From: an uncultured Bacteroidota bacterium
GTDB taxonomy: Bacteria; Bacteroidota; Bacteroidia; Flavobacteriales_F; PHOS-HE28
Direction of reading: 5' to 3'
Length of the DNA stretch: 64,000 bases
Assembly: GCA_902825795.1 (NCBI GenBank)
Contig: CADECG010000002.1
Span: forward strand, 15,541-79,540
Both the position numbers and the translations under genes were made by a program. Of the stretch, positions 3,522 to 60,702 are shown piece after piece (position 1 is the stretch's first letter; each line of letters opens with the position of its first letter). Below the pieces are notes generated by a model. That model saw only the letters and a list, made by a program, of their open reading frames with translations, had not been told where the DNA came from and did no database searches.

Positions 3522-3654
3522 GTGCAGCAAAGAACGAAAGGTGACCCCATTGCGCGGATCTTTCATGTACGAGTGCCGCAAAGCCGTGGTTCTTCATCCG
3601 GAACAGCAACCACAGAGGGATATTTCCCGTCCTTCGCGTCATCACATTCCCATG

Positions 3655-14299: not shown

Positions 14300-15338
14300 G
14301 GTAGTATGGTGCGAATGTAGCCTCAGGGTTTGTCGAGCGACGGCTTCCGCGGCTCTTGTTTTCAGCTTGTTGTTGACGGCGTGCGACGGCGGAAGTCACG
14401 CGGAGATCGACCCCGTTCCTGTTGAATTGGATGTGGTGAGGCTGGACCACAAGGTGTTCCGCACACCGCCGGACAGCATGTTATGGAAGTGCCGCCAACT
14501 GCAGGCGGAACTCGGTCCCTTCTGGCAACTCTATGTGGAGGACATCCTGCAAGCCGCGGCATTGGAAGATCCGCGGCTTCCGCTCGCTCTCAACACCTTC
14601 ACCAGCGACCCGGATTGGATGGAGGCCCAAGCAGCGATCGATAGCACGCTCGGCGACCTGTCCGGTCCAATGGCGGATATGACGGATGCATTCGGAAGAC
14701 TGAAAGCTGTGTTCCCTGACAGCATTACGCCCCGGGTCATCGTGTTCAATAGTGGTTTCAATTATGGCCTCTATCCCACGGATACGGATCTGGGTATCGG
14801 CGCGGAATGGTTCATCGGGCCGGAGCAGCGTGTGATCTCGTACCTCGCTCCTGAGAGCTTTCCGCAGTTCGTGAAGGACCGCATGCGCCCCGACATGCTG
14901 GCACCCGGCGCCGTGAAAGGATGGCTCATGGTGCACTGGCTGCGCGACACACGCGGTGAAGACCTGCTGACCAACCTTGTGGAGATCGGCAAGGTGATGG
15001 CCCTATTGGAAGCCGTGATGCCCGCTACGGATGCGTCGTTGCGGTTCGCCTTCACCCCCGAGCAACTGAAGTGGTGCGAAGAGAACGAGTACATGATGTG
15101 GCAGAAAATCGTCAACGACGAACTGCTCTTCAGCAAAGAGGAAAAAGCCGTGAGCCGCATCCTCAACGACGCGCCGTTCACCAATGGATTTCCCCGTGAA
15201 AGTCCAGGTCACGTGGGGGAATGGATCGGTTACCGCCTCGTGCAAGCATACATGGCCGACAACCCGGACCTCACCTTCGCGCAGTTGTTCGCGCTCACCG
15301 ATGCGCAACAGATCCTGAAGACCTACAAACCCCGCTGA
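14298..15338 (+). CDS. gldB: gliding motility lipoprotein GldB
   Basis: Lipobox 'LLLTAC' and GldB family-like sequence over ~330 aa. Followed immediately by gldC, as in Flavobacterium. Start chosen at the ATG of the CATG shared with the divergent upstream gene. The 5' part of the track ORF (14073-14297) is antisense to the OMP gene and was rejected. Confidence 0.75.
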   Translation: MVVWCECSLRVCRATASAALVFSLLLTACDGGSHAEIDPVPVELDVVRLDHKVFRTPPDSMLWKCRQLQAELGPFWQLYVEDILQAAALEDPRLPLALNTFTSDPDWMEAQAAIDSTLGDLSGPMADMTDAFGRLKAVFPDSITPRVIVFNSGFNYGLYPTDTDLGIGAEWFIGPEQRVISYLAPESFPQFVKDRMRPDMLAPGAVKGWLMVHWLRDTRGEDLLTNLVEIGKVMALLEAVMPATDASLRFAFTPEQLKWCEENEYMMWQKIVNDELLFSKEEKAVSRILNDAPFTNGFPRESPGHVGEWIGYRLVQAYMADNPDLTFAQLFALTDAQQILKTYKPR

Positions 15339-15414
15339 TGAATATCCAATGATCAATTTCCAACGGAAAGGCCGCTGGATCGGATATTGAGTATTGGACA
15401 TTGGCTATTGAACA

Positions 15415-15756
15415 TTGATCATTCCCATGAGCACTTCCCAGATCCGCTTCACCATTACCCTCGACGAGAACAAGGTGCCCGAACGCATTGAGTGGGAGGC
15501 CGATGACGCGAGCGCGAAGAGCGAGTGCAAGAGCACGCTCATCAGTTTGTGGGACGCCAAAGAGCAGAACACCTTGCGCATCGATCTGTGGACCAAGGCC
15601 ATGACGACGGATGAGATGAAGTCGTTCTTCCACCAGAACATCTTGACCATGGCCGACACGTTCGAGCGCGCCACCGGCGAAGGCAAGATGGCAGCGCAGA
15701 TGCGTGACTTCGGCGTGTACTTCGCGGAGCACATGCTGGGTGTGAAGCCGGAATAG
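15415..15756 (+). CDS. gldC: gliding motility-associated protein GldC
   Basis: Size of ~110 aa and sequence ('IRFTITLDENKVPERIEWEADDA...LWDAKEQNTLRIDLW') fit the GldC family. Sits directly downstream of gldB. Confidence 0.75.
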   Translation: MIIPMSTSQIRFTITLDENKVPERIEWEADDASAKSECKSTLISLWDAKEQNTLRIDLWTKAMTTDEMKSFFHQNILTMADTFERATGEGKMAAQMRDFGVYFAEHMLGVKPE

Positions 15757-15800
15757 TCCCGTGCGCCGGCCGAACGGGGCCGTGATCGACAAGATCACCG

Positions 15801-16979
15801 ATGAACTGCACACGAATGAGGCATTTGGTCGATCGGTGTGCGGATGAAGTGGTCCGCTGGATGCACAAGGTCGTGGCAACTCCGTTGGTCCGTTGGATCC
15901 TCTCAACGCCGCTACGGGCAACACTCGTGCTTTCCGTGTTCACAGTTCTCAGCAACTTCCCGCTGTACGATCTGGCCTACGCACAGGGGAGCACCGGTCC
16001 CAACTGGCCTCCCTTCTTCGAGCAGGTCGAAGCGCCGTTCCGTGACCATACGCAGGCGTATTCCGACTGGTCGCACGCATCGAAGCTTGGTTTCCGGTTC
16101 GTTCCTGCCGTGATCTGCAAAGCGCTCGGGCTTCGCACGTTGCCGCCGGTGTGGGCTTTCCAACTGCTCACCCTGTTCGCGCTCCACGCCTTTCTCTTCG
16201 CACTTCTTCTGCGTTGGTCCGGCTCGATCAAGAAGGCGTTCATCGCCGCGGTGCCGTGCTGCTTGGTAACGGCAGGGCATCCTTATCTCGATGATATCTG
16301 GGGCTACTTCGACACACTGGCACTCGCCTTCTTGATGGCGGGCATGCTCACCCGAAGACCGACGCTCTCGATCCTGTTTTTTCTGCTTGCATGGTTCACC
16401 GATGAACGCGCTCTAGTGGCATCGCCTGCGCTGGTCCTATTCCATTCGGCTACGTTCACGAAGGCAGCGGGGAACGGCAATGGCCGCATTTCTTATGCCC
16501 TCCGAAACAGCTGGTCACTGTTCTTGGCATTCGGCCTTTACGCGCTGCTCCGGATAGCGCTTGGCCACTGGCTCGGCCTTCGCACCGCACCGGTGGAAAC
16601 AACATACTTAATGGACCAATGGCCCACGGCTCTTGCTGCTCTTGGCCGCGGTTGCGAAGGCTTGCTGTTGGTCCTCGCGGTGTTCGTTGCGGTGCTCTGG
16701 CGTTCGCGCTCGTTCGGCCTTTTGCTCGCGTATGGCGCCGGCTTCTGCCTTGTATGGGGAACGGCCATTGCCGTGATCGACGTGGACCGCAGCATGGCCT
16801 ATCTCCTGCCGTACTTCACGCTTGCGCTGGTCGTCCTCATAGACCGTACCGAGTCACAACGGCTCTATCCGCTGCTATTGCTAACGGTGGTCCTCAACCT
16901 GTTCCTTGGCGCCAGTTGGTCGCTGCCCGCTCAGGTGTACCGCATGATCTTCATTGATCACACGTTGTCGCTTTTCTGA
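15801..16979 (+). CDS. hypothetical polytopic inner-membrane protein (about 10 TM helices)
   Basis: Strongly hydrophobic throughout. No catalytic motif recognised. Confidence 0.5.
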   Translation: MNCTRMRHLVDRCADEVVRWMHKVVATPLVRWILSTPLRATLVLSVFTVLSNFPLYDLAYAQGSTGPNWPPFFEQVEAPFRDHTQAYSDWSHASKLGFRFVPAVICKALGLRTLPPVWAFQLLTLFALHAFLFALLLRWSGSIKKAFIAAVPCCLVTAGHPYLDDIWGYFDTLALAFLMAGMLTRRPTLSILFFLLAWFTDERALVASPALVLFHSATFTKAAGNGNGRISYALRNSWSLFLAFGLYALLRIALGHWLGLRTAPVETTYLMDQWPTALAALGRGCEGLLLVLAVFVAVLWRSRSFGLLLAYGAGFCLVWGTAIAVIDVDRSMAYLLPYFTLALVVLIDRTESQRLYPLLLLTVVLNLFLGASWSLPAQVYRMIFIDHTLSLF

Positions 16980-42264: not shown

Positions 42265-43611
42265 TCAACGCTGCACCGATACGCGGGTGCTCCAAACGGA
42301 AGAACCGTTGCGGAGCGTCAGGGTATAGAAACCGGCGGGCATTCCGCTCACATCGATCATGCAGCGCTCGTTGGCGATCAACGCGCTACGCACTGTACGA
42401 CCGGCAACATCGCTCAAGGTGTATTCAATACGACCGCTGAGGTCCGGAGCGATCACCGTTAACCAAGCACTCGCAGGGTTCGGGAAAACACTGACCCCTG
42501 ACCCAGCAATGTCGTTGAGGCCCGTGCCCGCAGTGAAGTCGCTCAGGCCGCGCGGCTCGATCTTGCGTGCGCCGTTCGCAAAGTGCATCACGCCGGTCAC
42601 GTTGTAGAAGTTGCCCACCGTAGGCGCGTAGAGGTACATCAGGTCATCCACAGGCAGGGAGCCCTGCCAACTGGTGCCCGTCCATTCGAAGAACGTACCC
42701 GCATCGGGCAGGTTCATGCATTCCAGTTCGGCAATGTGGGTCAACACGCCCTCCCACTGCTCGGCAGCGGCGGAAGTGGCGTCCAGCATTTGGGGTGCAG
42801 GCTGCGGGTATTGACCAACCACAACCAAGTTGCTCACGTTGGTCAGCTCGGTCGTCGTGTTGAACTCCGTTACGGTCGCCGTCAACGTCACGCTGTCGCC
42901 CAATGCCACCACCGACGTATTGTCGAACACATAAATGCCGCTCCAAGGACCTGTCCCTGATTGGATGAAGTAGGAATTGGACCCTACGGTGTCCACACCG
43001 GTGACAATACCGCCCGTGTTCACCGCTTGGTTATTGAACGGCGAAACGCCGTTCAGGTCCGTTGTGTATTGGATCTCATAGATGCTCGCATCCACGGGAG
43101 GAACAATGATGCCTCCGGTGATGTTCACGTCGTCGATCACCAAATGCTCAGGGCCACTGGTCAATTGGATGGAGAGGATGAACTGTGCACCCGTTGTATC
43201 GTTCGCGGCGGTGATCTGCTGCGTTACCTGGGTCCAGGCGTTGCCCGTGGAAACGTAGTAAGGCGTGTACGATGCGTAGCCCGATGCGGCGGCACGACCA
43301 TCGAACAATCCAGTGCGCACACTGCCGTTACCGCGCACCCAATACGTTACATCGTAGGTGGTGCCATCAACTACGGTAGCCGATTGCGTGGTGAAACGCT
43401 TGTGGCCACTTACGCTGTTGGTCAAACGAACGGCATAGGTGCCTCCGTGCGGGTTGTTGCTCACTTGCGCAACGCTATCCGCGCTGAGCGTGGTCTTCGA
43501 GCCCATCCAATCGGAAGGCACGGTATCGGTCCACGTCTCGAACCCGCTCGTGAACTGTGCGCTGGCGGCGGTAGCGAGTGCAAGCAATAGAAGAAGTAGT
43601 GAAGCTCTCAT
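42265..43611 (-). CDS. secreted protein with T9SS (type A) C-terminal sorting domain and an N-terminal module resembling the substrate-binding domain of extracellular nucleases
   Basis: Signal peptide 'MRASLLLLLLALATAASAQ'. 'IYEIQYTTDLNGVSPFNNQAVNTGGIVTGV...YFIQSGTGPWSGIYVF' module. C-terminal 'GFYTLTLRNGSSVWSTRVSVQR' CTD. Confidence 0.6.
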   Translation of the reverse strand: MRASLLLLLLALATAASAQFTSGFETWTDTVPSDWMGSKTTLSADSVAQVSNNPHGGTYAVRLTNSVSGHKRFTTQSATVVDGTTYDVTYWVRGNGSVRTGLFDGRAAASGYASYTPYYVSTGNAWTQVTQQITAANDTTGAQFILSIQLTSGPEHLVIDDVNITGGIIVPPVDASIYEIQYTTDLNGVSPFNNQAVNTGGIVTGVDTVGSNSYFIQSGTGPWSGIYVFDNTSVVALGDSVTLTATVTEFNTTTELTNVSNLVVVGQYPQPAPQMLDATSAAAEQWEGVLTHIAELECMNLPDAGTFFEWTGTSWQGSLPVDDLMYLYAPTVGNFYNVTGVMHFANGARKIEPRGLSDFTAGTGLNDIAGSGVSVFPNPASAWLTVIAPDLSGRIEYTLSDVAGRTVRSALIANERCMIDVSGMPAGFYTLTLRNGSSVWSTRVSVQR

Positions 43612-43654
43612 GTGTTCTGGTATTCGTTAGGGTTGTGTGACCGGCGCCGGACGA

Positions 43655-44986
43655 TCAATTGATCTGCACGTCGTCGATACGGAAATTCGTGTCCTGGTTA
43701 TTGGGGCCGCTGCCGGTGTAGCGGAAGCCGACCACGAAGCCTCCCGTGTATCCAACGGGCAGGTATCCGCTTAGTTGAACAACACCGCTGTTCACCCAGA
43801 CGAAATCGGCCGTGCCATCGCTAGCGAAGGCGCTGGCGACCGGCACCCAGTTGGCGGTAGCGAGGTTGGTCCCATCGAAATTGGTACAGACGAAGAGCGA
43901 GAAGGGTTCATGTCCGGCATCCCCGAAAGCGCGCTGGCTCATGAACTGCAAGGTGTTGGTGCCAGTGGCCTGCACGTTCGGACTTACCAACCAGCTAACG
44001 GTCGATGGCGCTGAACTTGTGTATGCGCTGCCTTGCGCGAACAGTTCCGTTTGGAATGCCCCGCCGCGCCAAACGCGGTTGTCGGTGGAGAGCGAACCGG
44101 TGAACCAGCAGGCCAAATTGATGTTCGAATTGCTCACCACGGTAGCAAAATCCTCCTGCACAGTGGCAGCGGCAGCACATGGCTGGAAGGGAAGCGGGCA
44201 AGGGTCGCAACGAGTGCCGTTCATGTCGAGTTCGCCGAGATCGCGGATGATGAGCTGGTTGTTGCCTTGGTATTGTCCGAGGATACCGGTGAAAGTCCCG
44301 TTTCCGGTTGCTACCGGCAAACTGGCGAAATTGGCGTAGCCGCTACTGCGTACGATGATACTCCCGCTGCAATCGCTGAGGTTCCGATCGAGTGATTGTT
44401 GGCCGACCGCATCGGCATAAGGCTGCCCGTAACAAGCCTCATCCAACACGAACTCCACATCAGGGATCCGCACGAGCATGGATTGCAATGTGTCCAAACC
44501 GTAGCCGTTCAAGTGCGAGGCGTTGAGTTCGGCGATGGTCATCACCAACGGTTCCACAACGTTCAGCGTCGATTGCTTCACCACGTTATTGTCCACATCA
44601 ACGGAGTCGATCTGCAACACACCGTTGTACTGGTTAAGCGTGCAACCTGGCAGGTACACCCGTACACGATCGCCTTGGTAGAGACCACCGCTATTGCGCA
44701 ACCGCAGATTGATTGCTTGGCCACCATCCTGCATGTACACGTTCTTGTACAGATTCCCGTTCTCTTCATCAGCGGTAATGATGCCGTAAACGCTCAGGGG
44801 CTGTGTGAACCGCACTGGCAACTGGCCACTATCCCCGAACATCTGCCGCAGCTCAGGTATGGTGATCACTGCACCATCCGGTATCGACGCGATCGGCGGT
44901 GCATCGAACTCCTTGTCGCATGATGCGAAGAGTGTAACGGCGCCCAGAGCGATGCTGAGGTTGCGCAATGAAAAGAGGTTGTTCAT
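43655..44986 (-). CDS. surface lipoprotein (DUF5689-like) partnered with the upstream TonB-dependent receptor
   Basis: Lipobox 'VTLFASC'. N-terminal 'ITIPELRQMF...LSVYGIITADEENGNLYKNVYMQDGGQAINL' module similar in architecture to 42265-43611. Confidence 0.55.
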   Translation of the reverse strand: MNNLFSLRNLSIALGAVTLFASCDKEFDAPPIASIPDGAVITIPELRQMFGDSGQLPVRFTQPLSVYGIITADEENGNLYKNVYMQDGGQAINLRLRNSGGLYQGDRVRVYLPGCTLNQYNGVLQIDSVDVDNNVVKQSTLNVVEPLVMTIAELNASHLNGYGLDTLQSMLVRIPDVEFVLDEACYGQPYADAVGQQSLDRNLSDCSGSIIVRSSGYANFASLPVATGNGTFTGILGQYQGNNQLIIRDLGELDMNGTRCDPCPLPFQPCAAAATVQEDFATVVSNSNINLACWFTGSLSTDNRVWRGGAFQTELFAQGSAYTSSAPSTVSWLVSPNVQATGTNTLQFMSQRAFGDAGHEPFSLFVCTNFDGTNLATANWVPVASAFASDGTADFVWVNSGVVQLSGYLPVGYTGGFVVGFRYTGSGPNNQDTNFRIDDVQIN

Positions 44987-44989
44987 GGA

Positions 44990-47527
44990 TCAGAAGCTGA
45001 AGGTGGCCATTAGGAAGAAGGTGCGGCCGTACATGTAACCGTATTTGCTTGGGAAACGATCAACGTCCTGGCGATCAAAGCGCAATTGCTCGAACCCGCC
45101 GGTAACGAAGTCAGTGACATTGAACAGGTTGTTGACGTTGGCATTCACGGCAACGCGGTACTTGCGCTTGAGCAACCAACTCTTACCGGCGAAGACGTCC
45201 AGTACGAAGGCGCTCTCCAATTTCTCTTGCTCCAACAACGCGTTCACTTGTGGGTCCTCGTCCACGAAGATCTCCGTGGCCTCGGCAGTGCGACGCCCGG
45301 GGTTCGGATCCAGATAGATATCGTCGAAGAAGTTGCCGTTGACACCAGCGAACCAGAACTTGGGAGAGTTGTACTTCAAACCGATGCTGGCGGCAGTTTG
45401 TGGCATGCCCCCCACACGATAGTTCTTCCAGTACACGGTACGGTCGGTGGCCAGTACCTCGCTGCTATTATCGCGCGTGGCCGTTGCGGTGGGGCGGCTG
45501 CTGTACAAGTACTGGCCCTTGGCGTAAACGGCGGTAAGCGTCCATGTGGCGGTGAGATTCGCCTCCGCACCGAATTCAACACCCATGTGCGTTTGGTCCA
45601 CGCCCGTCATCGTGTAATTCACGATGGTGAGGAACTCCTCGTGGAAAAAGCTGCGGCTCCAGATCTGGTCGCTGAATTTCGTGTAGTAGGCGGTGAGGCG
45701 CCCCTTGATCCGCGGTGCTCGAAGCTGGTAGTTGATGTCCGCGCTGGTCACCTTTTCATTCGTGAGGCCGCCGATCACACCATCCTGGTTACGCGCGCTC
45801 AGATAAGCGGAGCGCGGCGCAGGTGGCCGGGTCATGTGGGCAGCGTTCACCGAAACATAGTGTCGCCCGCTCATCTTGTACACCGCACCGGCCTTGGCCC
45901 CATAGTGGAAAAAGCTGTGTGTGTCGCCTTTGCCTTTGCTGGATGTGGGGAAGCGGCCGTTGGCCACATTGCCTTCGCGGAAGAAGCTGGTGTGCGAGAC
46001 GCTCAAGCCCACGTACGCCTCGAGCTTTCGCCACTCTTTCTCCAACTGCCCGAAAGCGTTGATGCTGCTCACATGCAACTCGTAGTCGTACCCGAAGCGG
46101 TCACCTTCCCTTACAACATGGTTGGGGTTCTCAATATCGTTCTGCGCGGCGTTGGGGTCGTCTTGGTCCAATTCTGCGAACTGGTTCAAGTCAACCCAGA
46201 ACTCACCGCCCAGTAGATCCTGCACCAGTTTGTAGTTGTGCGTCACTTGGTTGTTCCAACTGGCTCCTGCGGTAATGTGCATGTCCTGCTTCCAGGCGCG
46301 GTCCCACACCGTGTTCAAACCCCAACGGGTGGGATCCGTGCGTTGCTCCTCCACAATGTATTTGCTGCGCAATCCGCTCACATTATTGCCGGCTATGCCC
46401 TCCGCATTCTCCACGGTGTAAAGATTCTTGCCGTTGGCGAAGTAGAGCTGGTCCCAATTGATCTGCCGGGTGTCGTCATCACTGCCCCAAAGGCTTGCCA
46501 GTTGTGCGGAATAGTCGCCATCGGTCTGCTCGTAATAGCTCGGCAGGTAGCGGTAATAGTCAGGACGGGGATCCTTCGCATCGAACCAGTTGAGGTTGGT
46601 GAGGCCGTCGCGACCGAACGTGTACAACGCGCTCGTGGTCACCTTTCCCTTCTCCCCCAGATCCCAATAATGAGTGAACAGGAAAACCGGTTTGTGATCA
46701 TGGCTCATGCGCGCGTTGCGCTTCTCCCCGTCCTGATAGCCCCAATTGGGATTGTAGTAGTTGTTGCCCGTGAGGTCGCACGCCTCCTGCACAGCGATGC
46801 CTTGACGGCCTTGGATGATGGGTGCACCGAAGTACACGAAGCCAAGGCTATGGCGATCGTTCAATTTCTTCTCCACGCCGAGGAAGTACGCCCAAGCGTC
46901 ATAGCTCGTCCCTTGCACATATCCTTCCTTGGCCCATCGACGGCTGCCACTTACGCTGACCGCCCAGCCGTTCGCCCGCATGCCCGTGTTGTACGTCACC
47001 ATCAGGCGATTGCGGTAGCTACGATCACTGAATGCCAAACTGGTACGCAGACCCTTGCGCAATTCGCTCGGGCGTAAGCCGATCTCCGTGTGCCCTCCCA
47101 CACTGCCGAAGGTCTGCCGCGACGCGGCAACGCCATTGTGTACCCGCATCCAGCGCGTAACATCATTCAAGCCACCCCACAGCGTCCATGGCGCAAACCC
47201 GCTTTCCATGTCGTTGATCATCACGCCGTTCAACGTGACCAACGTGTTCTCACCATCGTACCCCCGAATGCGGAAACGTGCATTCCCGAAGTTGAAGCCT
47301 GCGGTGCTGGTGAAGATGTCGCGGGAACTCTGAAGCACCCCACTGATATCCTGCGCGCCGAGCGAAGCATCCAGTTCCTGCGCATCTATCGCATACATGG
47401 GCATCCGAGCATTCGCAGTCCGGCTCGTATCCACCGGCGCATACAAAGAAGTATCCACTTGCCCGAGCACTGGCGCAGCCAGCACTGCAACAACGAGAAG
47501 TATGCTGGAACGTAAGGATCTGATCAT
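44990..47527 (-). CDS. TonB-dependent receptor
   Basis: Signal peptide. Plug ('ISGVLQSSRDIFTSTAGFNFGNARFRIRGYDGENTLVTLNGVMINDMESG'). ~700-aa barrel ending 'GRTFFLMATFSF'. Confidence 0.85.
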   Translation of the reverse strand: MIRSLRSSILLVVAVLAAPVLGQVDTSLYAPVDTSRTANARMPMYAIDAQELDASLGAQDISGVLQSSRDIFTSTAGFNFGNARFRIRGYDGENTLVTLNGVMINDMESGFAPWTLWGGLNDVTRWMRVHNGVAASRQTFGSVGGHTEIGLRPSELRKGLRTSLAFSDRSYRNRLMVTYNTGMRANGWAVSVSGSRRWAKEGYVQGTSYDAWAYFLGVEKKLNDRHSLGFVYFGAPIIQGRQGIAVQEACDLTGNNYYNPNWGYQDGEKRNARMSHDHKPVFLFTHYWDLGEKGKVTTSALYTFGRDGLTNLNWFDAKDPRPDYYRYLPSYYEQTDGDYSAQLASLWGSDDDTRQINWDQLYFANGKNLYTVENAEGIAGNNVSGLRSKYIVEEQRTDPTRWGLNTVWDRAWKQDMHITAGASWNNQVTHNYKLVQDLLGGEFWVDLNQFAELDQDDPNAAQNDIENPNHVVREGDRFGYDYELHVSSINAFGQLEKEWRKLEAYVGLSVSHTSFFREGNVANGRFPTSSKGKGDTHSFFHYGAKAGAVYKMSGRHYVSVNAAHMTRPPAPRSAYLSARNQDGVIGGLTNEKVTSADINYQLRAPRIKGRLTAYYTKFSDQIWSRSFFHEEFLTIVNYTMTGVDQTHMGVEFGAEANLTATWTLTAVYAKGQYLYSSRPTATATRDNSSEVLATDRTVYWKNYRVGGMPQTAASIGLKYNSPKFWFAGVNGNFFDDIYLDPNPGRRTAEATEIFVDEDPQVNALLEQEKLESAFVLDVFAGKSWLLKRKYRVAVNANVNNLFNVTDFVTGGFEQLRFDRQDVDRFPSKYGYMYGRTFFLMATFSF

Positions 47528-47724
47528 CGTGTGCCGGGCTTCCATGAAAGGGCGCCAAATGTAGCCTTGTCCCAACGCTGGAAACCTGATGCTACCGGCA
47601 CCGGAGCGTTAAGGCTGCATCCGTGTGATGAACAGCAAGACTTGCGTAACACTGCATGGGGGCACGTCCCACGCGCGTACCTGCGCGCGATACCTTCGAC
47701 AGCTTTTTCCGCCCCCTGACCCAC

Positions 47725-50700
47725 ATGGCCCGTTTCCACATTTGGTTGCACCGAACGCTCTTTGCGATCGGCCTGCTTTGCGTGGGGCAGTCGGCGCGCG
47801 CCGGTCACTTTGCGGGTGGTGATATCACTTACGAATGCCTCGGCGGCAATTCGTATGAGATCACGCTGGATCTCTTCCTTGATTGTTCGGGCGCCCCCAT
47901 GATCCCGCAGGATCTGGACTTCAGCAGCGATTGCGGCATATCGTTCACCGTGCTGGCCATGCCGGTACCCGCTCCAGTGGAAGTGAGCCAACTGTGTGCG
48001 GCAGAGCTACCCAACAGCTCGTGCAGTGGGGGGGCATGGCCGGGCATGGAGCACTACGTGTTCACCACGATCGTGAACCTCCCCCCGTGCAACGACTGGA
48101 ACATCAGTTGGGACTTGTGCTGTCGAGCGGGTACGCTCAACCTAACGGGCACGCCGGGCATGTACATCTACGCAAACTTGGATAACGCCACCGCGCCCTG
48201 CAACAACTCGCCGGTGTTCACCGATCAGTCCATTCCGTACGTGTGCGTTGGTCAACCTGTGAATTACAACTATGGTGTCACCGAGCCTGACGGCAACACC
48301 ATTGTGTACTCGTTGAACACCGCGTATTTCGCTGCCGGGTCTCCCGTTCCGTATCAAGTGGGATATACGGGGTTGCTACCCGCCCCGGGCATCACCATCG
48401 ACCCCGCCACGGGTCAGCTCAGTTTCACGCCAGCGTTGATCGGTAACTACGTGGTGGCTGTACTGGTTCAGGAGTTCGATGTGAACGGCGTACTGATAGG
48501 ATCGGTGATGCGCGACCAGATGTTCGTTGTGCTGGCCTGCACGGGTAACGTACCCGTGACAACAGGTATCACCGGTGTGACCGGGGGCGCGGGAACGTAC
48601 TTGGTCACCGGTACGAACTCGATCGAGGTGTGCGATGGTGCAGCCGTTTGCGTGGATGTGGTCTTCAGCGATGCCGACCCGGCCACTGTGTTGCAAGTCG
48701 TATCGCTGGCAACGACACTGCTACCCGGCGCCACTTTCACCGTTACCGGGACTAACCCGGCCACGGCGACCATTTGCTGGACAGCTGACGCGGCATTCTC
48801 ACCAGTGAACGTGCTCATTACCGCGGACGATGGCAACTGTCCGGTGGAGAACATAGCCAGTACGTCCATCAACTTCGTGGTAACCCAAGGCGGTGGAGCG
48901 GCGCCGGATCCCGGTGCCAATGGTTCCGTAACGATCTGCGGGACCGCCGCGCCAATTGACCTCTTCACTGAACTCGGCGGAACACCGGATGTCGGCGGAA
49001 GTTGGACCGCACCGGGCGGTGGCACGCATACAGGCATGTACGACCCTCTCGTGGATGGTCCGGGCATCTACACCTACGCCGTTGGAAACGCCTGTGCAAG
49101 CGCCACAGCCACTGTTACGGTAACGGAAACGGCGGGGCCGAATGCCGGTACGAACGGAACGCTGAACACCTGTACCAATAATCCAGCTTCCAGCCTTTTC
49201 GCCGCGCTCGGTGGAACACCACAAGCCGGTGGTACTTGGACAGCACCGGGTGGTGCCGCGCATGGTGCGAACTATGATCCCGCGTTTGATGGGCCGGGCA
49301 TCTACACCTATACCGTTGCGGGTGTTGCACCCTGTGGGAACGCTACTGCAACGGTCACTGTTACGGAAGTGGCGGGGCCGAATGCCGGAACGAACGGAAC
49401 CCTGACAGTGTGTGCGAATGGCGCTGCCACACCGCTCTTCGCGCAGTTGGGTGGCGCCCCACCGAACACCGGCACTTGGACGAATCCGCTCGGTGTTGCC
49501 CACGGCGTGGGCTTCAACCCGAACTACAACCCCGTTACGCACAACCCGGGCGTTTACACCTACACCGTTCCGGGTGTAGCCCCCTGCGCGGCGGCCACAT
49601 CAACAGTAACCGTAACGGAAGTACCGCTGCCAGATGCCGGAACGAATGGAACGCTCAACCTCTGCGCGAATGCATTGCCCGCGGACATGTTCGCCTCGCT
49701 TGGTGGCACGCCACAAGCAGGCGGATGGTGGACCGCACCGGGTGGTGCGGTGCATGGCGCGAACTATGATCCCGCCGTTGATGCACCTGGCATCTATGTC
49801 TATCACGTTGCCGCTCCGCCATGTGCAAGTGCTACTGCAACAGTCACCGTTACTGAGACCGCTGCCCCTAATGCAGGCACGAATGGGACTTTGACCCTGT
49901 GCTCCAATAGCGCTTCGACGAACATGTTCGCTTCGCTTGGTGGCGGACCCCAAGCAGGTGGAACATGGACCGCGCCCGGCGGTGCAGCGCACGCGGCCGC
50001 GTACAACCCGGCCGTGGATGCCCCGGGCATATACACGTATACCGTAGGTGCAGGTGGTCCCTGCGGCAGTTCATCGAGCACGGTTACGGTGACCGAGAAC
50101 CCGGCAACGAACGCGGGAACGAACGGGACGCTTACGATCTGTTCCAACAGCGTCGCGGTTGCGCTCTTTGCATCGCTCGGTGGTACGCCGCAAGCGGGTG
50201 GTGCTTGGACCGCCCCCGGTGGCGTTGCCCATGGTGCGAACTACGATCCAGCGCTTGATGCACCCGGCGTTTACACATACACAGTTACGGGAGTTGCTCC
50301 CTGTGCGAACGGTACCGCGACTGTTACGGTCACCGAGAACCCGGCAACGAATTCCGGTACCAACGGTACGCTTACGATCTGTTCAAACGGCGCCTCGGTT
50401 GCGCTCTTCGCCTCGCTCGGTGGTGCGCCACAAGGTGGTGGCGCTTGGACCGCCCCGGGCGGTGCAGCGCATGGCGCGAACTACGATCCAGCGGTCGATG
50501 CACCAGGTATCTACACATACACGGTAACAGGTGCAGCACCGTGCGCGAATGCGACAGCAACGGTAACGGTAGCGGAGAATCCAGCAACGAACGCAGGAAC
50601 GAATGGGACGCTTACGATCTGTTCCAACGGTGCTGCGGTTGCGCTTTTTGCTTCGCTCGGTGGCACGCCGCAACTGGGCGGTGCTTGGACCGCTCCGGGC

Positions 50701-53700
50701 GGTGCAGCGCACGGCATCAACTACGATCCAACCGTTGATGCACCGGGCATCTATACGTATACGGTGGCTGGTGTTGCACCATGCGCGAACGCAGTGGCAA
50801 CGGTCACCGTTACCGAGAACCCGGCAACGAATGCTGGGACAAACGGCACGCTCACGATCTGCTCGAACGGTGCTGCGGTTGCGCTCCTTGCATCGCTCGG
50901 TGGTACACCGCAAGCGGGCGGTGCATGGACCGCTCCCGGTGGCGCAGCGCACGGCGCGAACTATGATCCAGTGGTCGATGCACCGGGCATCTATACCTAC
51001 ACCGTTGCTGGAGTTGCACCATGCGCGAATGCTGCGGCAACGGTCACCGTTACCGAGAACCAGGCAACGAATGCCGGGATCAACGGCACGCTGACGATCT
51101 GTTCGAACGGTGCCGCGGTTGCGCTCTTTGCATCGCTTGGTGGTACACCACAAGTTGGTGGAACTTGGACCGCTCCCGGTGGCGCTGCACATGGCGCGAA
51201 CTATGATCCGGTTGTCGATGCACCGGGCATCTACACGTACACAGTGGTCGGTGTCGCACCATGCGCGAACGCAACCACAACGGTCACCGTTACCGAGAAC
51301 CCGGCAACGAATGCCGGGACCAATGGCACGCTCACGATCTGCTCGAACGGTGCTGCCCTCGGCCTCTTAGCCTCACTCGGCGGTACGCCACAAGTGGGTG
51401 GCACATGGACCGCCCCCGGCGGCGCAGCGCACGGTGTGAACTACGAGCCAACGGTTGATGCACCGGGCATCTACACCTACACGGTAACAGGTGTAGCGCC
51501 TTGTACCGACGCAACAGCTGCTGTCACCGTTACTGAAAATCCCGCGACGAATGCAGGTACGAACGGAACACTGACGGTCTGTTCGAACGGTGTTGCAACG
51601 GACATGTTCCTGTCGCTCGGTGGCACACCGCAGGCAGGTGGTGCGTGGACTTCGCCGGGAGGTGTTGCACATGGGGCCAACTACGTACCTGCCATGGATA
51701 CCCCGGGCATCTACACATATACCGTTGCTGGTGTCGCACCGTGTGCGAATGCCACTTCAACGGTTACGGTGACGGAAGATCCAGCACCGAACGCAGGTAC
51801 CAACGGGAACTGGAGTTTGTGCAGTTCAGGTGGGCCGGTGAGCCTCTTCGCTGCGCTTGGCGGTGCGCCACAAGCAGGAGGTACCTGGACCGCTCCCGGT
51901 GGCGTAGCGCATGGTGCCAATTACGATCCAGCAGTGGATGTACCCGGTGTGTACACATACACCCTCCTTGGCATCGCGCCCTGCGCGAACGCGACTTCCA
52001 CCGTAACTGTCACTGAGAGCATTGCATCGACAGCTGGGACGCCCGCTGTGCTGACGCTATGCTCTTCCGATGCTGCCGTCAATTTGTTCGGCCTGCTCGG
52101 CGGCGCACCGCAGGCAGGTGGCAACTGGACCGCTCCTGGTGGTGCTGCTCATGGGCCCAACTACGATCCCGCTATCGACGGTCCGGGGGTGTACACCTAC
52201 ACCATACCAGCTGCCCCACCATGTCCTGCCGTATCCGCAACGGTTACCGTAACGGAGAACTTGGCACCTAACGCTGGCCTCAACGGTGCGCTGGCGATCT
52301 GCGATAATGACCCGATCACTAACCTTTTCTTGTCCCTTGGTGGACTTCCCCAACCAGCTGGAACATGGACCGCGCCGGGAGGAGCCGCACACAGCGGGAA
52401 CTATGATCCCACGATCGACTCACCGGGTTTGTACACGTACACCATTGTCGGGATCGCCCCTTGCACGAATGCCTCGGCAACGGTAACGGTAACTGAGAAC
52501 GCGGCACCGAATGCCGGTAGCGCAGGCGCGCTGACCACTTGCGCCAACAGCGTTGCAGCGGACCTGTTCCTGTCGCTTGGCGGCGCACCCCAGGCAGGTG
52601 GCGCATGGACCGCTCCCGGCGGCGCGGCGCATGGTGCGAACTACGATCCATTGATCGATGCACCTGGTATCTACACATACACAGTAACAGGTGTTGCTCC
52701 CTGCGGCAATGCAACGGCAACGTTAACCGTAACAGAGAACGCGGCGGCCGACGCAGGCACCAACGCAACGTTGACGATCTGCTCGAACAGTGTGCCGGTC
52801 AACATGTTCCTATCACTCGGAGGAGCGCCTCAAGCCGGTGGCACATGGACCGCACCCGGCGGTGCGGCACACGGCGCGAACTATGATCCTACAGTGGATG
52901 CACCCGGCATCTATACCTACACGGTGGTCGGCATCGCGCCGTGCCTGAATGCAACGGCAACGGTCACCGTTACCGAGAATGCGCCACCCGATGCTGGCAC
53001 CAATGGGCCGCTCGCCATCTGTTCCAATTCTATTGCGGCGAACATGTTCTTGTCGCTCGGGGGTTCACCGGATATCGGTGGTGCATGGACCGCACCCGGC
53101 GGTGTAGCGCACGGCGCGAACTATGATCCAGCAGTGGATGCACCGGGCATTTACACCTATACGGTCAACGGTATTGCACCCTGCGCGAATGAAACGGCAA
53201 CGGTAACCGTTACCGAGAACACCGCTCCGAGCGCAGGTTCCAACAGCGCTGTGGTGCTCTGCGATCAAGCCGCACCATCAAACCTGTTCAACGCACTTGG
53301 CGGCGCCCCGACAGCAGGCGGCACATGGACGGCACCCGGTGGCACAGCGCACAGTGGCACGGTTGACCCAGCCGTGGATCCTGCAGGCGTGTACACCTAC
53401 GTCGTACTCGGCATGGCGCCCTGCCCGAACGCAAGTGCAACAATCACCGTCACCATCACCTCCACCCCTGATGCGGGGATCGATGGCACGTTGACGTTGT
53501 GCACGCAAAGTGCGCCAACAGCCTTGTTCGGTTCGCTCGGCGGAACCCCTGATGCCGGTGGCGTTTGGAGCGCTCCCGGTGGCGCCGCGCATAGCGGGGT
53601 GTTCGATCCAGCGACGGATCCAGCAGGTATCTACACCTATGCCATCGCCGCCGTGGCCCCTTGCCCAGGAGCAAGTGCAACCGTAACGGTATCGATCAAC

Positions 53701-56700
53701 GCAGCCCCCGATGCCGGCGCGAACGGGAATCTGAGCGTATGTACCCAAGGTGCTGCGGTCGGTATGTTCGCTTCGCTCGGTGGAAGTCCGGATGCAGGCG
53801 GCGCGTGGACCGCTCCTGGTGGCGCGGCGCACGGTGCTAACTACGATCCAGCTATTGACGCACCGGGCATCTACACATACACCGTTGCAGGTGTTCCCCC
53901 ATGCGCGAACGCAACGGCAACGATTACGGTCGCTGAAGTCGCAGTAGCGAACGCGGGTACGAATGGTGGGATCACCCTCTGTTCCAACAGCGGCGTATCG
54001 AACATGTTCCTTGCACTTGGTGGCGCGCCGCAAGGCGGCGGAACGTGGACCGCACCCGGTGGTGCAGCGCACAGCGCCAACCACGATCCTGCTATCGACG
54101 GCCCCGGCGTCTACACGTACACAGTAGCCGGAACAACGCCATGCCCGAATGCGACGGCCACGGTGACGGTGACCGAGAACGCCGCACCGAGTGCGGGGTC
54201 TGATGCTGCAATGATCGTATGCGATCAGAGCGCACCACAGTCGCTCATCGCTTTCCTCAGTGGGTTCCCACAAGCTGGTGGGAGTTGGACCGCCCCGGGA
54301 GGCGGAGCCCACAGCGGCATCATCGATCCGAGCGTTGATCCTGCGGGCGTTTACACGTACACGGTTGCCGGCTTAGCTCCGTGTACGAATGCAAGCGCAA
54401 CGGTTACTGTAACGATCACCGGTTCGCCCGATGCTGGAACGAATGGAGCATTGACACTGTGCGCGACGGGCGCACCAACATCACTCTTCGCCGCACTCGG
54501 CGGAAGCCCCGATGCAGGTGGCTCATGGACCGACCCCAATGGACTTGCACACGGGCCGAACGTTGATCCATCGGTTGATCCAAGCGGTGTGTACACCTAC
54601 ACCATCGCTGCGATCGCACCATGCCTCGGCGCGACTTCCACCGTAACGGTGACGATCAACGCATTGCCGGATCCCGGCACGAACGGCGCGCTCACCGTCT
54701 GCGATCAAGGTGCGCCGCAAGGTCTGTTCGTTGCACTGGGTGGAACACCCGCCGCTGGCGGAACATGGACCGAACCCGGCGGTGCAGCGCACAGCGGAAC
54801 GATCGATCCGACGGTTGATCCAGCCGGTGTGTACACCTACACGGTTCCGGGCGTTGCACCGTGCGCGAGTGCCAGCGCAACGGTGAACGTAACGATCACA
54901 AGTTCGCCGAATGCCGGCACCAACGGCACCTGGACATTGTGCGAGGACATGGCCCCGACAAGCCTCTTCGCCGCACTCGGTGGAAGCCCCGATGCAGGTG
55001 GCACTTGGACCGACCCCAATGGACTTGCACACGGCCCGAGCGTTGACCCGGCTGTTGATCAAAGCGGTGTGTACACCTACACCATTGCTGCGATCGCACC
55101 ATGCCTCGGCGCGACTTCCACCGTAACGGTGACGATCAACGCATTGCCGGATCCCGGCACGAACGGCGCGCTCACCGTGTGCGATCAAGGTGCGCCGCAA
55201 GGATTGTTCGCAGCACTTGGTGGAAGCCCCACTGTTGGTGGAACATGGACAGCACCCGGTGGTGCGGCACATAGCGGTACGATCGATCCGACCGTTGATC
55301 CAGCAGGCAACTACACCTACACAGTGAACGGCACGGCGCCATGCGGTAGCGCGAGCGCGACGGTGACCGTCACCATTACCAGTTCACCGAATGCCGGCAC
55401 CAACGGAACTTGGACACTTTGCGAGTCGTTCGCTCCGACGTCGCTGTTCGCCGCCCTTGGTGGAAGTCCGGATGCTGGTGGTGCGTGGACCGATCCAAAT
55501 GGTAACGCACATAGTGGCATGGTGGATCCGGCCAACGATCCGAGCGGTGCTTATACATACACCATAGGTGCAGTGCCTCCGTGCTTAGGCGATGCTTCCA
55601 CCGTGATGGTCACCATCAATCCATCGCCCGATCCCGGCATTGATGCCGCCCTCACCGTTTGCGATCAGGGCGCGCCACAATCGCTCTTCGCAGCGCTCGG
55701 TGGAAGTCCGGATGCGGGTGGTGCATGGGCCGATCCCAACGGCAACGTGCACAGTGGAACGATCGACCCCACGGTTGATCCAGCGGGCAACTACACCTAC
55801 ACGGTGAATGGTGTGGCACCTTGCGGCAGTGCGTCGTCGATCGTTGCTGTTACGATCACCGGCTCACCGGATGCGGGCACCAACGGCGCGTGGACGTTGT
55901 GCGAGGACATGGCCCCAACAAGCCTCTTCGCTGCACTCGGCGGAAACCCTGACGCTGGCGGCACTTGGACCGACCCCAATGGACTTGCGCACGGCCCGAA
56001 CGTTGACCCATCAGTTGATCCGAGCGGCGTGTACACCTATACCATCGCTGCGGTTGCCCCATGAGCGGGAGCGACCTCAACCGTGACCGTAACGATCAAC
56101 GCATCCCCGGATCCGGGCACCAACGGCGCGCTCACCGTCTGCGATCAAGGAGCACCGCAAGGGTTGTTCGCTGCCCTTGGTGGAACACCCGCCGTTGGCG
56201 GAACATGGACCGCACCCGGCGGTGCTGCCCACAGCGGAACGATGGACCCCACTGTTGATCCCGCAGGTGTGTACACGTATGCTGTTGCGGGTGTTGCGCC
56301 ATGTGCCAGTGCCAGTGCAACGGTCACCGTAACGATCACCGGTTCGCCGAATGCTGGCACAAGTGCATCACTGGCACTGTGCAGTTTGGATCCCATCACG
56401 GATCTGTTCAATGCACTCGGTGGAAGTCCGGATGCGGGTGGTACATGGACCGACCCGAACGGTCTTTCCCACAGCGGCAACATCGACCCATCAACGGATC
56501 CAGCCGGAACGTACACCTACACGGTTCCTGCCACTTCACCCTGTCTTCCCGCATCTGCTGACATCTCCGTTACTATTGAAAGTGCACCCGAGGCCGGTGT
56601 TGACGGCGCAATTGCTGTATGCACCGGCGATGCTCCGTTCGCGCTGTTCAACCTGCTGGGCGGAACGCCCGATGGCGGTGGAAGTTGGACGGATCCCAAT

Positions 56701-58563
56701 GGTGTGGCCTTTGGCTCCACCTTCGATCCAGGCGCGGACCCGCAAGGCGTCTACACCTATACGGTTGTCGGTACCGCGTGCCCGCAGGATCAGAGCATTG
56801 TGGATGTAACGGTGAACCTCGGACCGGATGCGGGACAGGACAATGCGATCGCGATGTGCACCAATGGCGCTGCGATACAACTCACCGGTGCGTTGCTCGG
56901 CACACCCGATCCGAACGGCACATGGACCGATCCCAACAGCCAGCCCTTCTCCGGAACGTTCGATCCTGCGATAGCGCTGCCCGGGGCGTACACGTACACT
57001 GTCCCCGGCAATGCGGGCTGCCCCGATGATGTAGCCGTGCTCACCATGGCCGTAAGCCCCGAAGCGCAAGCTGGCGGCAACGGTGCCATCGCGTTGTGTA
57101 CCACGGATCCAAGTATTGACCTGTTCACGTTGCTCACCGGTACACCCGATGCAGGCGGGGCATGGAGCGATCCGAACGGCACTGCCGTGGCTGCGCTGCT
57201 CGATCCGTCCACGGCGGTCAGCGGTAACTACACGTACACGGTCACCGGCCTACCACCGTGCGTAGATGCGACGGCTTCCGTGGCCGTTACGATCACACCA
57301 GCACCCGACGCAGGTGTTGATGCGAATGCGATCTACTGCGACACCGAACCGGCTGTGCAGCTCTTCTCACTACTTGGCGGAAACGCGCAGATCGGCGGCT
57401 CGTGGACCGATCCGAACGGAAACCCGGCCAACGGTGGTTTCGACCCGGCGAGCGATACACCCGGCGCATACACCTATCGCGTGGTGGGGACAGGCGCTTG
57501 CACCGACGATGAAGCGGTAGTGACCGTAAGTGTGAGCCTAGCGGCCGATGCTGGCAGCAACGGCAGCATCACCGTATGCAGCAACGATGTTCCGTTCGCG
57601 CTCTTCGCGTTGCTCGGTGGAAGTCCGGACGCCGGTGGCGTGTGGACCGCTCCTGATGGATCAGCGAACAACGGCAACGTTGATCCCGCTACCGGCCTCA
57701 ATGGCGACTACACTTATACCGTTCAATCGCCCGTGCCATGCGCCGCGCAGAGCGCAGTGGTGAACGTTACGATCATCCCGAACCTGCCGCCGGTCATCAC
57801 GGTGGACATCGGCGCAGGTTGCGCTCCGGTGATGGCCAGCATCAGCAGCAGCTACAGCGGACCGGGCACATGCCTATGGGACTTGGGCAACGGCACCACC
57901 AGCACCGAGTGCGAGCCCGATTCGATCCTTTACACAGCAGGCACGTACGACCTCACGGTAACCATCGATCCGGGTAATGGCTGCACAGGCACGTTCACCT
58001 ATCCGGCCGCTGTGCAAGTCGTGGATCCACCGATCGCTTCGTTCTATGCCTTGCCCGATACGCAAGTGAGCCTCAACAACGCGGAGATCTTCTTCGCCAA
58101 CACGAGCAGCGGCGCGGACGCATGGCTCTGGCAATTCGATTCGCTGGATGAGAGCACGGACGAGAACCCGACGTTCACCTTCCCGGAGGAGGAACCCGGC
58201 GAATACGAGGTGTGCCTGATCGCCTACGCTTCGGAAGCCTGCACCGACACGGCATGCCGCACCATTGTTGTGCAAGGCAGCGGCTATTGGGTACCGAACA
58301 CCTTCACCCCCGATGGCAACGGCCTCAACGACTTCTTCTTCCCGGTACTGGGCAATCCGCACCCCGAGGAATTCCGCTTCATGATCTTCGATCGTTGGGG
58401 CCAGCCGCTCTTCAGCACCGAGGACCCGGCCGTGTATTGGGACGGCAACTTCAGCAATGGCACCGAAGTGCCGATCGGCGTGTACGTCTGGAAACTCTGG
58501 CTGCGCGAACCCTTCACCACCGACCGCGTGGAACGCACGGGGCATGTGACGGTGGTGAGGTAA
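47725..58563 (+). CDS. giant repetitive cell-surface protein with T9SS type-B C-terminal domain (SprB-like adhesin candidate); reading frame interrupted by one in-frame TGA at 56062-56064
   Basis: Signal peptide 'MARFHIWLHRTLFAIGLLCVGQSARA'. ~390-aa Cys-rich N-domain. ~37 tandem 80-aa repeats. Two PKD-like modules. C-terminus 'GYWVPNTFTPDGNGLNDFFFPVLG...VYWDGNFSNGTEVPIGVYVW' is the 'gliding motility-associated C-terminal domain'. Track ORFs 47656-56064 and 56083-58563 share one frame. Confidence 0.7.
48900..57780 (+). repeat. coding tandem-repeat array, 240-nt period (~37 units), partly organised as near-identical 480-nt super-repeats (about 54420-56340)
   Basis: Unit starts recur every 240 nt (e.g. 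49141, 49381, 49621, 49861). Stretches of >100 nt are almost identical between 54600-54730 and 55080-55210. Confidence 0.8.
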
Positions 58564-58651: not shown

Positions 58652-59365
58652 GTGCCCGACCGCCTCGTTATCATTCCCACGTACGATGAGAAGGAGAACA
58701 TCGAGGATGTTCTGATGCGGGTGTTCGCATTGCAACCTGAGTTCCATGTGTTGGTGGTGGATGACGGAAGCCCGGATGGCACCGCGTCCATTGTGAAGGA
58801 CTTGATGGTGCGGTGGCCCGGTCGCCTGCACCTGATGGAACGCAAAGGCAAGTTGGGGTTGGGCACCGCCTACATCGCGGGCTTCAAGTGGGCGCTTGAT
58901 CGGAACTATGCGTTCATCTTCGAGATGGACGCCGACCTGAGCCACAACCCGGATGATCTTGTGCGGTTGTATAATGCTTGCGCGGTTGAAGGCGTTGGCA
59001 TGACCGTTGGCAGTCGTTACGTCCGCGGCGGCAGCGTGCGCGATTGGGCGTGGCACCGCATTGCGATCAGCTGGTTCGCATCGCTGTACGTCCGCACCAT
59101 TCTATGGCTCGGTGTCATGGATACCACGGCCGGGTTCGTGTGCTATCGGAGCATAACGCTGGCGCAGCTCGACCTTGATGCCATCAAGTTCATCGGTTAC
59201 GCCTTCCAGATCGAAATGAAGTACCGCGTGAAGCGGAAAGGTTTGCGCATCGTGGAAGTCCCGATCACCTTCATTGACCGCGTGAAGGGCAAGAGCAAGA
59301 TGAGCATGAACATCTTCAAGGAAGCGTTCATCGGTGTGATACGCATGCGCTTCACCGTGAAGTGA
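58652..59365 (+). CDS. GT2 polyprenol-phosphate glycosyltransferase (dolichyl/undecaprenyl-phosphate mannosyl/glucosyltransferase-like)
   Basis: 'IIPTYDEKENI', 'VVDDGSPDGT', 'MDADLSH' DxD motif. ~237 aa. Confidence 0.85.
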   Translation: MPDRLVIIPTYDEKENIEDVLMRVFALQPEFHVLVVDDGSPDGTASIVKDLMVRWPGRLHLMERKGKLGLGTAYIAGFKWALDRNYAFIFEMDADLSHNPDDLVRLYNACAVEGVGMTVGSRYVRGGSVRDWAWHRIAISWFASLYVRTILWLGVMDTTAGFVCYRSITLAQLDLDAIKFIGYAFQIEMKYRVKRKGLRIVEVPITFIDRVKGKSKMSMNIFKEAFIGVIRMRFTVK

Positions 59366-60702
59366 TGAACAACTGGCTGATCCGCAACGCACAAGTGGTG
59401 AACGAAGGCCGCACGTTCGCTGCCGATGTGTTGTTGCGCGACGGCTTCATTGAACGCGTGGCGGAAGAAGGCATCACCGATGCGCGTGGTGCGATCGAGG
59501 TGGACGCCACCGGCAAGTACCTACTGCCGGGGTGCATCGATGACCAAGTGCATTTCCGTGAGCCGGGCCTGACGCACAAGGACGATATCGCACATGGCAG
59601 TGCTGCCTCGGTGGCCGGTGGCATTACCAGTTACATGGAGATGCCGAACACCCAGCCGCAAACGCTCACGCAGCAATTGCTGGCCGAGAAATACGGCATG
59701 GGCGGCGCGACTTCCGTTGCGAACTACAGCTTCTTCATGGGCGTGGGAAACAGCAACATTGATGAAGTGTTGCGCACCGATCCACGCACTGTGTGTGGCC
59801 TGAAAGCCTTCCTCGGCAGCAGCACCGGCGACATGTTAGTGGACGATGAACGCGCGCTCGACCGTCTCTTCCGCGAAGCGCATATGATCCTAGCCGTGCA
59901 TGCCGAGCACGAGCCCACGGTGAAGGCCAACTTGGCCAAAGCGATCGCCGAGTACGGCGAGAACATACCCGTGGAGGTGCATCCTGTGATCCGCAATGCG
60001 GAAGCATGCTACCGCAGCAGCAGCGCCGCCGTGGCGCGCGCCAAGGAGCACGGCACACGCTTGCACGTGTTGCACATCAGCACCGCGCGCGAGTTGGAAC
60101 TGTTCACCGCAGGACCGCTGAAAGACAAACGCATAACAGCCGAAGCATGCATCCATCATCTGTGGTTCGATGAACACGCCTACCAAGCCAAGGGAACCTT
60201 GGTGAAATGGAACCCGGCGATCAAGACCGGAACGGACCGCGCCGCCATCCGCCAAGCAGTACTCGATGATCGTATCGATGTGATCGCCACTGATCATGCG
60301 CCGCACACACTGGAAGAAAAGAACCTGCCCTATGCCAAGTGCCCGAGCGGAGCCCCGATGGTGCAGCATGCATTGGTCACCATGCTTGAACAGGTGCACG
60401 AGGGCGCGATCACCTTGGAACGCGTGGTGGAGAAAATGTGCCACGCCCCGGCACGCCTGTTCAATGTGAGCAAGCGCGGTTACGTGCACGAAGGCCACCA
60501 CGCCGATCTGGTGCTGGTGGACATGAACGCGCCGTGGGAGGTCAGGAAGGACAACCTGTTGTACAAGTGCGGCTGGAGCCCATTGGAAGGCCAACACTTC
60601 CGCAGCCGCGTGCTGCGCACCTGGGTGAACGGCAACCCAGTGTGGGATGGGGAACGCGTGAACACGAGCGTGCACGGACAGCGCCTGCTCTTCGATCGAT
60701 GA
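59362..60702 (+). CDS. pyrC: dihydroorotase-like cyclic amidohydrolase
   Basis: Amidohydrolase metal-binding 'IDDQVHFREPG' (HxH), 'ATDHAPH', and overall ~445-aa class-I DHOase architecture. Confidence 0.7.
   Translation: MMNNWLIRNAQVVNEGRTFAADVLLRDGFIERVAEEGITDARGAIEVDATGKYLLPGCIDDQVHFREPGLTHKDDIAHGSAASVAGGITSYMEMPNTQPQTLTQQLLAEKYGMGGATSVANYSFFMGVGNSNIDEVLRTDPRTVCGLKAFLGSSTGDMLVDDERALDRLFREAHMILAVHAEHEPTVKANLAKAIAEYGENIPVEVHPVIRNAEACYRSSSAAVARAKEHGTRLHVLHISTARELELFTAGPLKDKRITAEACIHHLWFDEHAYQAKGTLVKWNPAIKTGTDRAAIRQAVLDDRIDVIATDHAPHTLEEKNLPYAKCPSGAPMVQHALVTMLEQVHEGAITLERVVEKMCHAPARLFNVSKRGYVHEGHHADLVLVDMNAPWEVRKDNLLYKCGWSPLEGQHFRSRVLRTWVNGNPVWDGERVNTSVHGQRLLFDR

Follow-up and report, generated by a model that had tools for sequence, protein, structure and literature searches.

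The window, as we call the whole 64,000-nucleotide stretch of DNA analysed here, carries on its forward strand a reading frame that runs from 47656 to 58563 for 3,636 codons and contains, on translation, one internal stop only, a TGA at 56062-56064. Is this codon a genuine stop that has just disabled a gene, an error in the sequence, a recoded UGA, or one state of a switch? The initial annotation had raised each of these possibilities and had described the TGA as splitting a giant adhesin gene at a conserved Cys codon of a repeat, a description that both translation and repeat alignment confirmed.

The list of open reading frames gives two ORFs at this locus, 47656-56064 (2802 aa) and 56083-58563 (826 aa), which share frame 1 and have only the TGA between them. 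Up to the TGA, the product measures 2802 aa from the first ATG (47656) and 2779 aa from the second (47725), which opens a signal peptide (MARFHIWLHRTLFAIGLLCVGQSARA) as judged by inspection; the 2779-aa product proposed earlier is consistent with this second start. ORF list, translation and repeat parsing assign to the upstream part of the gene (47725..56061, +) the signal peptide, an N-terminal region of ~430 aa and repeats 1-30. The TGA itself (56062..56064, +) takes the place of the second of the two invariant Cys in repeat 30. The in-frame continuation (56065..58563, +) encodes the remainder of repeat 30, repeats 31-37, a PKD domain and a CHU_C / T9SS type-B sorting domain (CTD), and the full frame ends at a terminal TAA (58561-58563, +). 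The PKD domain lies at 57832..57999 (+; PF18911, 43.2 bits, residues 45-100 of the query 57700-58560) and the CTD at 58291..58560 (+; CHU_C PF13585, 46.4 bits; TIGR04131, 37.5 bits against a cut-off of 35), and both are confined to the part downstream of the TGA. Coding past the stop is intact, as had been noted: all 826 codons are open, and PF18911 and PF13585/TIGR04131 score above their cut-offs. Searches of Pfam and NCBIfam returned no significant family for the ~430-aa N-terminal region or for the repeats.

Repeat parsing resolved 37 tandem repeats of ~80 aa each, with exactly two Cys per repeat, and in the window TRF found only tandem arrays of period 240 and 480 nt. The two invariant Cys of one domain are 54 residues apart, the usual spacing for an Ig disulfide, which suggests that they form a disulfide of this type. 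AlphaFold2 modelled two consecutive repeats, with the gene's own repeats as the alignment, as two beta-sandwich domains, with high confidence (pLDDT 94.6). The best match of this model among solved structures in Foldseek was to the Ig-like segments of GhpA (PDB 9flu, 9fls, 9flv and others; E = 2e-6, 22–27% identity), followed by Ig domains of titin and NCAM. Structure comparison, the sole route by which the repeats were identified, thus points to an Ig-like fold. Because it combines a signal peptide, Ig-like repeats, a PKD domain and a type-B CTD, the gene encodes a giant T9SS-secreted cell-surface fibre or adhesin of Ig-like domains. A T9SS type-B cargo has its signal peptide and CTD on one polypeptide; the ancestral uninterrupted gene joins the two, and the gene as written does not, its CTD being beyond the TGA.

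In repeat 30, the column of the second Cys is taken by the stop, within the context GTT GCC CCA TGA GCG GGA GCG ACC TCA ACC GTG. At this column the other 36 copies have TGC (26) or TGT (10), and none of them has A as the third base. The sister copies at 54619..54639 and 55099..55119 (both +) read CCA TGC CTC GGC GCG ACT TCC, with CCA TGC CTC GGC at 54619-54630 and 55099-55110; they are as the initial annotation described them, apart from a trivial shift of 3 nt in position. That a TGA should fall on a Cys codon is unremarkable, because 96 of the 775 one-step nonsense paths in the gene (12.4%) are in Cys codons, with ~5% in second-Cys codons, and it is weak evidence for selenocysteine. Ala, Gly, Thr, Pro, Val, Asn and Asp abound in the repeats, and their codons have no one-step route to a stop, except for GGA (Gly).

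We compared the site with orthologous genes. Species-representative genomes were scanned with the C-terminal 287 aa, which led to syntenic copies in uncultured Flavobacteriales metagenome-assembled genomes (MAGs). Of these, L003 (JADJCX010000002) shares 94% aa identity and about 89% nt identity with the window gene, and two others, L004 and L005, share about 80% aa identity. L008 (Ga0138256_10012988) was found by a metagenome pattern scan, and L011, a syntenic ENA scaffold, was reached via a protein match. When the C-terminal ~1,000 residues were aligned as protein, L003, L005, L008 and L011 covered the site; all four have Cys and none has a stop: L003 and L008 read Cys-Pro, L005 Cys-Val and L011 Cys-Leu, at the position where the window reads stop-Ala. 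The nucleotides of L003 and L008 are CCA TGT CCG GGA GCG ACC TCA, and the rest of the surrounding ~60 nt is the same as in the window. The window differs from these two orthologues at the site by two adjacent bases (TC to AG). A difference at two adjacent bases is slightly unusual; the second of them is in a codon that varies among the orthologues and the window (Pro, Val, Leu, Ala). Since TGC-GCG is the most frequent codon pair at the second-Cys position of the sister repeats, and the next codon is variable in orthologues, a single C/T-to-A change suffices to create the stop.

The same comparison bears on how the repeats evolve. The stop-bearing 240-nt unit shares 90.0% identity with its L003 orthologue and no more than 82.5% with any sister unit, which refutes its earlier description as a near-identical repeat. 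Every 240-nt unit of the array is nearer its L003 orthologue than any paralogue in the window; therefore, the repeats evolve largely independently, and concerted evolution is weak. Four nearby nucleotides had been reported to differ from the sister copies. They do, but they are not tied to the event that produced the stop: GGA GCG ACC TCA is identical in the orthologues, and the nearby differences are therefore old divergence between paralogues.

In order to place the change in time, we calculated dN/dS between the window and its orthologues by the Nei-Gojobori method. Against L003, the ratio was 0.098 upstream of the stop (580 codons) and 0.081 downstream of it (829 codons); against L008, the downstream value was 0.076 (829 codons). 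Flanking genes gave 0.04–0.08 against L003 (235–444 codons per gene). There were no further stops or frameshifts in the gene across its 3,636 codons. These ratios show that the downstream part was under purifying selection over essentially the whole divergence (dS about 0.33). As dN/dS does not rise past the stop, the change, if real, is very recent. The locus has the pattern of a recent pseudogene, with a premature stop set against intact orthologues and little decay. Among the initial proposals, a very recent nonsense mutation is the reading we favour, given Cys in four of four orthologues, a downstream dN/dS that equals the upstream one, and a CTD that is encoded only downstream. Judged by these sequence comparisons, the TGA is probably a real, very recent Cys-to-stop (TGY to TGA) allele, with a product that would lack the secretion domain.

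Among the non-overlapping ORFs of at least 150 aa in the window, TGA terminates 23 of 42, or 22 of 41 when the upstream part of this gene is set aside. Three of the TGA-ending ORFs have syntenic counterparts in L011, with lengths of 237/237, 443/443 and 446/445 aa. Alternative codes in which TGA is a sense codon (codes 4 and 25) were rejected on the count of 22 of 41 other ORFs, and the code is therefore standard.

The main rival to a real stop is a consensus or assembly error, with a true codon of TGC or TGT and an intact gene. The window apparently comes from a MAG, and assemblers plainly struggle with this gene in other MAGs, where it is damaged by at least three frameshifts (in the long-read MAG L003) and by a 100-N gap (in L011). 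All other features of the gene look functional, and we found no independent sequence of the same population that confirms the A at 56064. The metagenome pattern scan, which allowed any two bases at the variable positions, returned only L008, from a sister lineage and with TGT CCG. Protein-database searches with two queries across the junction (561 aa and 131 aa) and with the downstream 826 aa gave no near-identical match; the matches listed were no longer than ~1.7 times the query, a range in which giant read-through proteins could not appear. Exact-protein look-ups held no record of the 826-aa downstream ORF, of a predicted 304-aa upstream fragment (55150-56064), or of the amidohydrolase ORF that follows the gene, in its 446-aa reading. 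Several observations argue against an error. No paralogue exceeds 82.5% identity to the unit, and no 31-mer of 55179-58563 recurs in the window. Misplaced paralogous reads cannot yield TGA, with third-position A in 0 of 36 paralogous codons. Independent Logan contigs agree with the flanks with 0 mismatches over about 12.7 kb. Contigs from runs ERR3089236 and ERR3089240 equal the window over 4,295, 2,885, 5,527 and 1,364 bases without mismatch or gap, and the proteins of neighbouring genes on them are 100% identical to those of the window. No frameshifted genes are evident among the window ORFs. Furthermore, only 775 of ~32,500 possible substitutions in the gene (2.4%) create a stop, so that a random error yielding one is a priori unlikely. 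We therefore infer that the base is probably real. Repeat collapse was rejected as an artefact on k-mer uniqueness and paralogue identity, and is unlikely. The initial suggestion of an assembly error inside a near-identical repeat thus loses its repeat component, given the identity ceiling of 82.5% and the unique 31-mers, and what is left of it, a plain consensus error, is the less likely account of the TGA, though one to be taken seriously.

If the base is real, the UGA might still be recoded, with selenocysteine in place of the structural Cys, or be read through, in a programmed or leaky manner, to give some full-length protein. The UGA aligns with Cys in 36 paralogous repeats and in four orthologues, as is expected of a selenocysteine gene, the coding sequence past it is intact, and UGA is the leakiest bacterial stop codon. 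Against this, the base after the TGA is G, which in E. coli makes for comparatively strong termination, and the same codon terminates 22 other ORFs of the window. None of the four orthologues with sequence at this site has the stop, and this lack of conservation leaves the programmed readthrough first suggested without positive evidence. Nor does the sequence after the UGA resemble a SECIS element: the 65 nt from the UGA have a minimum free energy of −16.4 kcal/mol (z = +0.52), a value that 138 of 200 shuffled sequences equal or better. Small hairpins ~9 nt (loop start) and ~45 nt past the UGA have the wrong spacing for a SECIS, the second (4-bp CCCG/CGGG) is also present in Cys-encoding sister and orthologous copies, and the sequence 3' of the UGA is the same in a Cys-encoding orthologue. 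This second hairpin is the nearby cccggatccggg (56106..56117, +; 42–53 nt past the TGA), previously described as a palindrome without a loop; it is indeed a palindrome, but its one fold is a 4-bp stem with a 4-nt loop, and it encodes a conserved P-D-P-G linker. The Cys itself appears to be structural, in a secreted Ig-like domain with no redox catalytic site. Rfam gave no match in the window at gathering scores and none in 55900-56400 at E ≤ 10, and ARAGORN found no tRNA, hence no tRNA-Sec, within the 64-kb window. Bacterial SECIS elements lie immediately downstream of the UGA (Zhang et al. 2006; PMC1794560), and the same 2006 survey did not detect the selenocysteine trait in Bacteroidetes (PMC1794560). 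Selenocysteine was rejected on the fold, Rfam, the tRNA scan and taxonomy (PMC1794560), and its insertion at this TGA is very unlikely; the doubt that the initial annotation had voiced, on seeing no SECIS-like hairpin, was borne out. Taken as a whole, recoding of the UGA is barely credible. An on/off polymorphism, in which stop-bearing and intact alleles coexist and are interconverted by gene conversion between Ig-repeat units, is improbable as well, though less so. A possible donor exists: two sister units share, without a difference, a stretch of 92 nt that includes the equivalent Cys codon (54607-54698 and 55087-55178), and this tract is unusually well conserved, with 89–90 of its 92 positions kept in L003. 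In addition, two Logan contigs both start at 58474, inside the CTD-coding part, and one may speculate that these breaks mirror branching between haplotypes. However, the site at 56062 shows neither a simple-sequence tract or homopolymer nor an inverted repeat or invertible element, as would mark a contingency switch, the best donor is only 82.5% identical, and the units track their orthologues rather than each other. Phase variation by gene conversion, as first proposed, thus has no positive evidence, and a mosaic or gene-conversion origin of the TGA was rejected, there being no sister copy that could supply the A. A literature search on phage resistance through nonsense mutations in Flavobacterium motility adhesins gave nothing usable. 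We regard as highly improbable the broader idea that the stop is one state of an on/off fibre polymorphism (under phage or grazer pressure, for example) reversible through gene conversion from a sister repeat, or that low-level UGA readthrough keeps some full-length fibre. Most likely, the stop in this gene is an ordinary, already known kind of event, and neither a selenocysteine codon nor a programmed switch.

What would a real Cys-to-stop allele mean for the cell? In the sequenced population of this uncultured Flavobacteriales bacterium, the substitution would have reached fixation or a high frequency. Translation would run through the signal peptide and 30 Ig-like domains and end at codon 2780 (counted from ATG 47725). 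T9SS cargo enters the periplasm by means of a Sec signal peptide and depends on a CTD for its export and anchoring. For the 2779-aa product one would thus expect arrival in the periplasm but, since the CTD is encoded only past the TGA, neither export by the T9SS nor anchoring. Neither a signal peptide nor a promoter accompanies the 826 codons past the stop, and we found no internal promoter-like or terminator-like signal near it; any product re-initiated downstream would be without a signal peptide. With no CTD on the truncated product and no signal peptide downstream, the allele would be null for the surface fibre, that is, a loss of function and a nascent pseudogene.

The appropriate annotation is therefore a single interrupted gene (pseudogene or truncated allele), and neither two genes nor a selenoprotein; a Cys/TGA coincidence in a Cys-rich repeat protein is no evidence for selenocysteine. 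Should the base be genuine, the lineage has only just given up a surface fibre of 3,600 aa on which strong purifying selection still acts in its relatives; this would add a small data point on the turnover of costly surface structures in natural Flavobacteriales populations. Beyond correct annotation, the significance is small.

The gene and its stop can be set beside several known systems. GhpA, from Aureispira sp. CCB-QB1, is a grappling-hook protein that is secreted by the T9SS and built of Ig-like domains (PMC12428579). Like the window gene, it is a giant T9SS cargo with tandem Ig-like domains (PMC12428579). The likeness is in the repeat fold only (TM-score about 0.45), and the N-terminal domain of the window gene is unrelated or unmatched. 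Nothing in the window gene points to heptamer formation, a hook tip or predation. With the T9SS type-B giants of the SprB type (Flavobacterium johnsoniae), it shares a signal peptide, thousands of residues of tandem beta-rich repeats, a CHU_C / TIGR04131 domain that forms the very C-terminal end, and a Flavobacteriales origin. In contrast to SprB, its repeats have no PF13573 match, and a stop interrupts its frame 2.5 kb short of the CTD. Bacterial selenoproteins such as fdhF likewise have an in-frame UGA where all homologues have Cys. The window site differs from them in its lack of a SECIS-like hairpin, in a Cys that appears to be structural, in 3' sequence that is the same as in a Cys-encoding orthologue, and in belonging to a phylum in which the 2006 survey detected no selenocysteine trait (PMC1794560). 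If the base is real, no feature distinguishes this gene from nascent pseudogenes that arise by single nonsense mutations in large bacterial surface-protein genes: it shares with them a single premature stop, orthologues intact at the site, an absence of further decay and a large mutational target, here 775 one-step nonsense paths.

The gene order flanking the giant gene is common to the window (42265-47575 and 58652-60702) and to L011, a syntenic ENA scaffold carrying an orthologue (1-5141 and 13686-16071). On the 5' side, both encode a CBM_4_9 / Por_Secre_tail protein, a DUF5689 protein and a TonB-dependent receptor; on the 3' side, both encode a GT2 glycosyltransferase, an amidohydrolase and a DUF4296 protein. 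The orthologous giant gene of L011 (5341-13138) is interrupted by a 100-N scaffold gap, and that of the syntenic MAG contig JADJCX010000002 (L003, 1-10864) contains at least three frameshifts. These breaks of the giant gene in other MAGs are assembly problems, and the frameshift pattern suggests that L003, whose contig name begins with "tig", comes from a long-read assembly. In protein-database searches with queries of 561, 826 and 131 aa, the longest matches listed were 980, 1427 and 226 aa, respectively, at most ∼1.7 times the query, and full-length giant homologues were not among the matches listed. Many of the database matches were consecutive "hypothetical proteins" occurring in runs in MAGs of the kind in which the giant gene is broken (e.g., IPK99_03635, IPK99_03640 and IPK99_03645).

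Logan contigs L009 and L010, assembled independently from runs ERR3089236 and ERR3089240, both start at exactly window position 58474, 90 nt short of the 3' end of the giant gene, and match the window 100% from there onward. Because both assemblies break at the same position, the data suggest an assembly-graph branch at this point, with either strain heterogeneity within the giant gene or a k-mer of its C-terminal sorting domain that also occurs in a paralogue as the suggested source.

Within the array of ∼80-aa repeats (48883-57792), a 92-nt tract is duplicated exactly at 54607-54698 and 55087-55178, where it runs across the codon of the second Cys and the linker between domains. Exact tracts of 37 and 32 nt are likewise duplicated at 50798-50876 and 51278-51356. 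The repeat units holding these tracts are elsewhere ∼84% identical. Of the 92 nt, 89-90 are kept in both orthologous copies in L003, even at synonymous sites, a pattern suggesting constraint at the nucleotide level or gene conversion.

The Cys-rich N-terminal region of the giant protein (∼430 aa; 47725-49020) is presumably its distal tip, and had no significant match in Pfam or NCBIfam. The ∼80-aa repeat matched no family in the same two databases. Its predicted fold is confidently that of tandem Ig-like domains (pLDDT 94.6; model mc6d04d398917), and the nearest solved structures to this model are segments of GhpA, the grappling-hook protein of Aureispira (Foldseek E = 2e-6, 22-27% identity).
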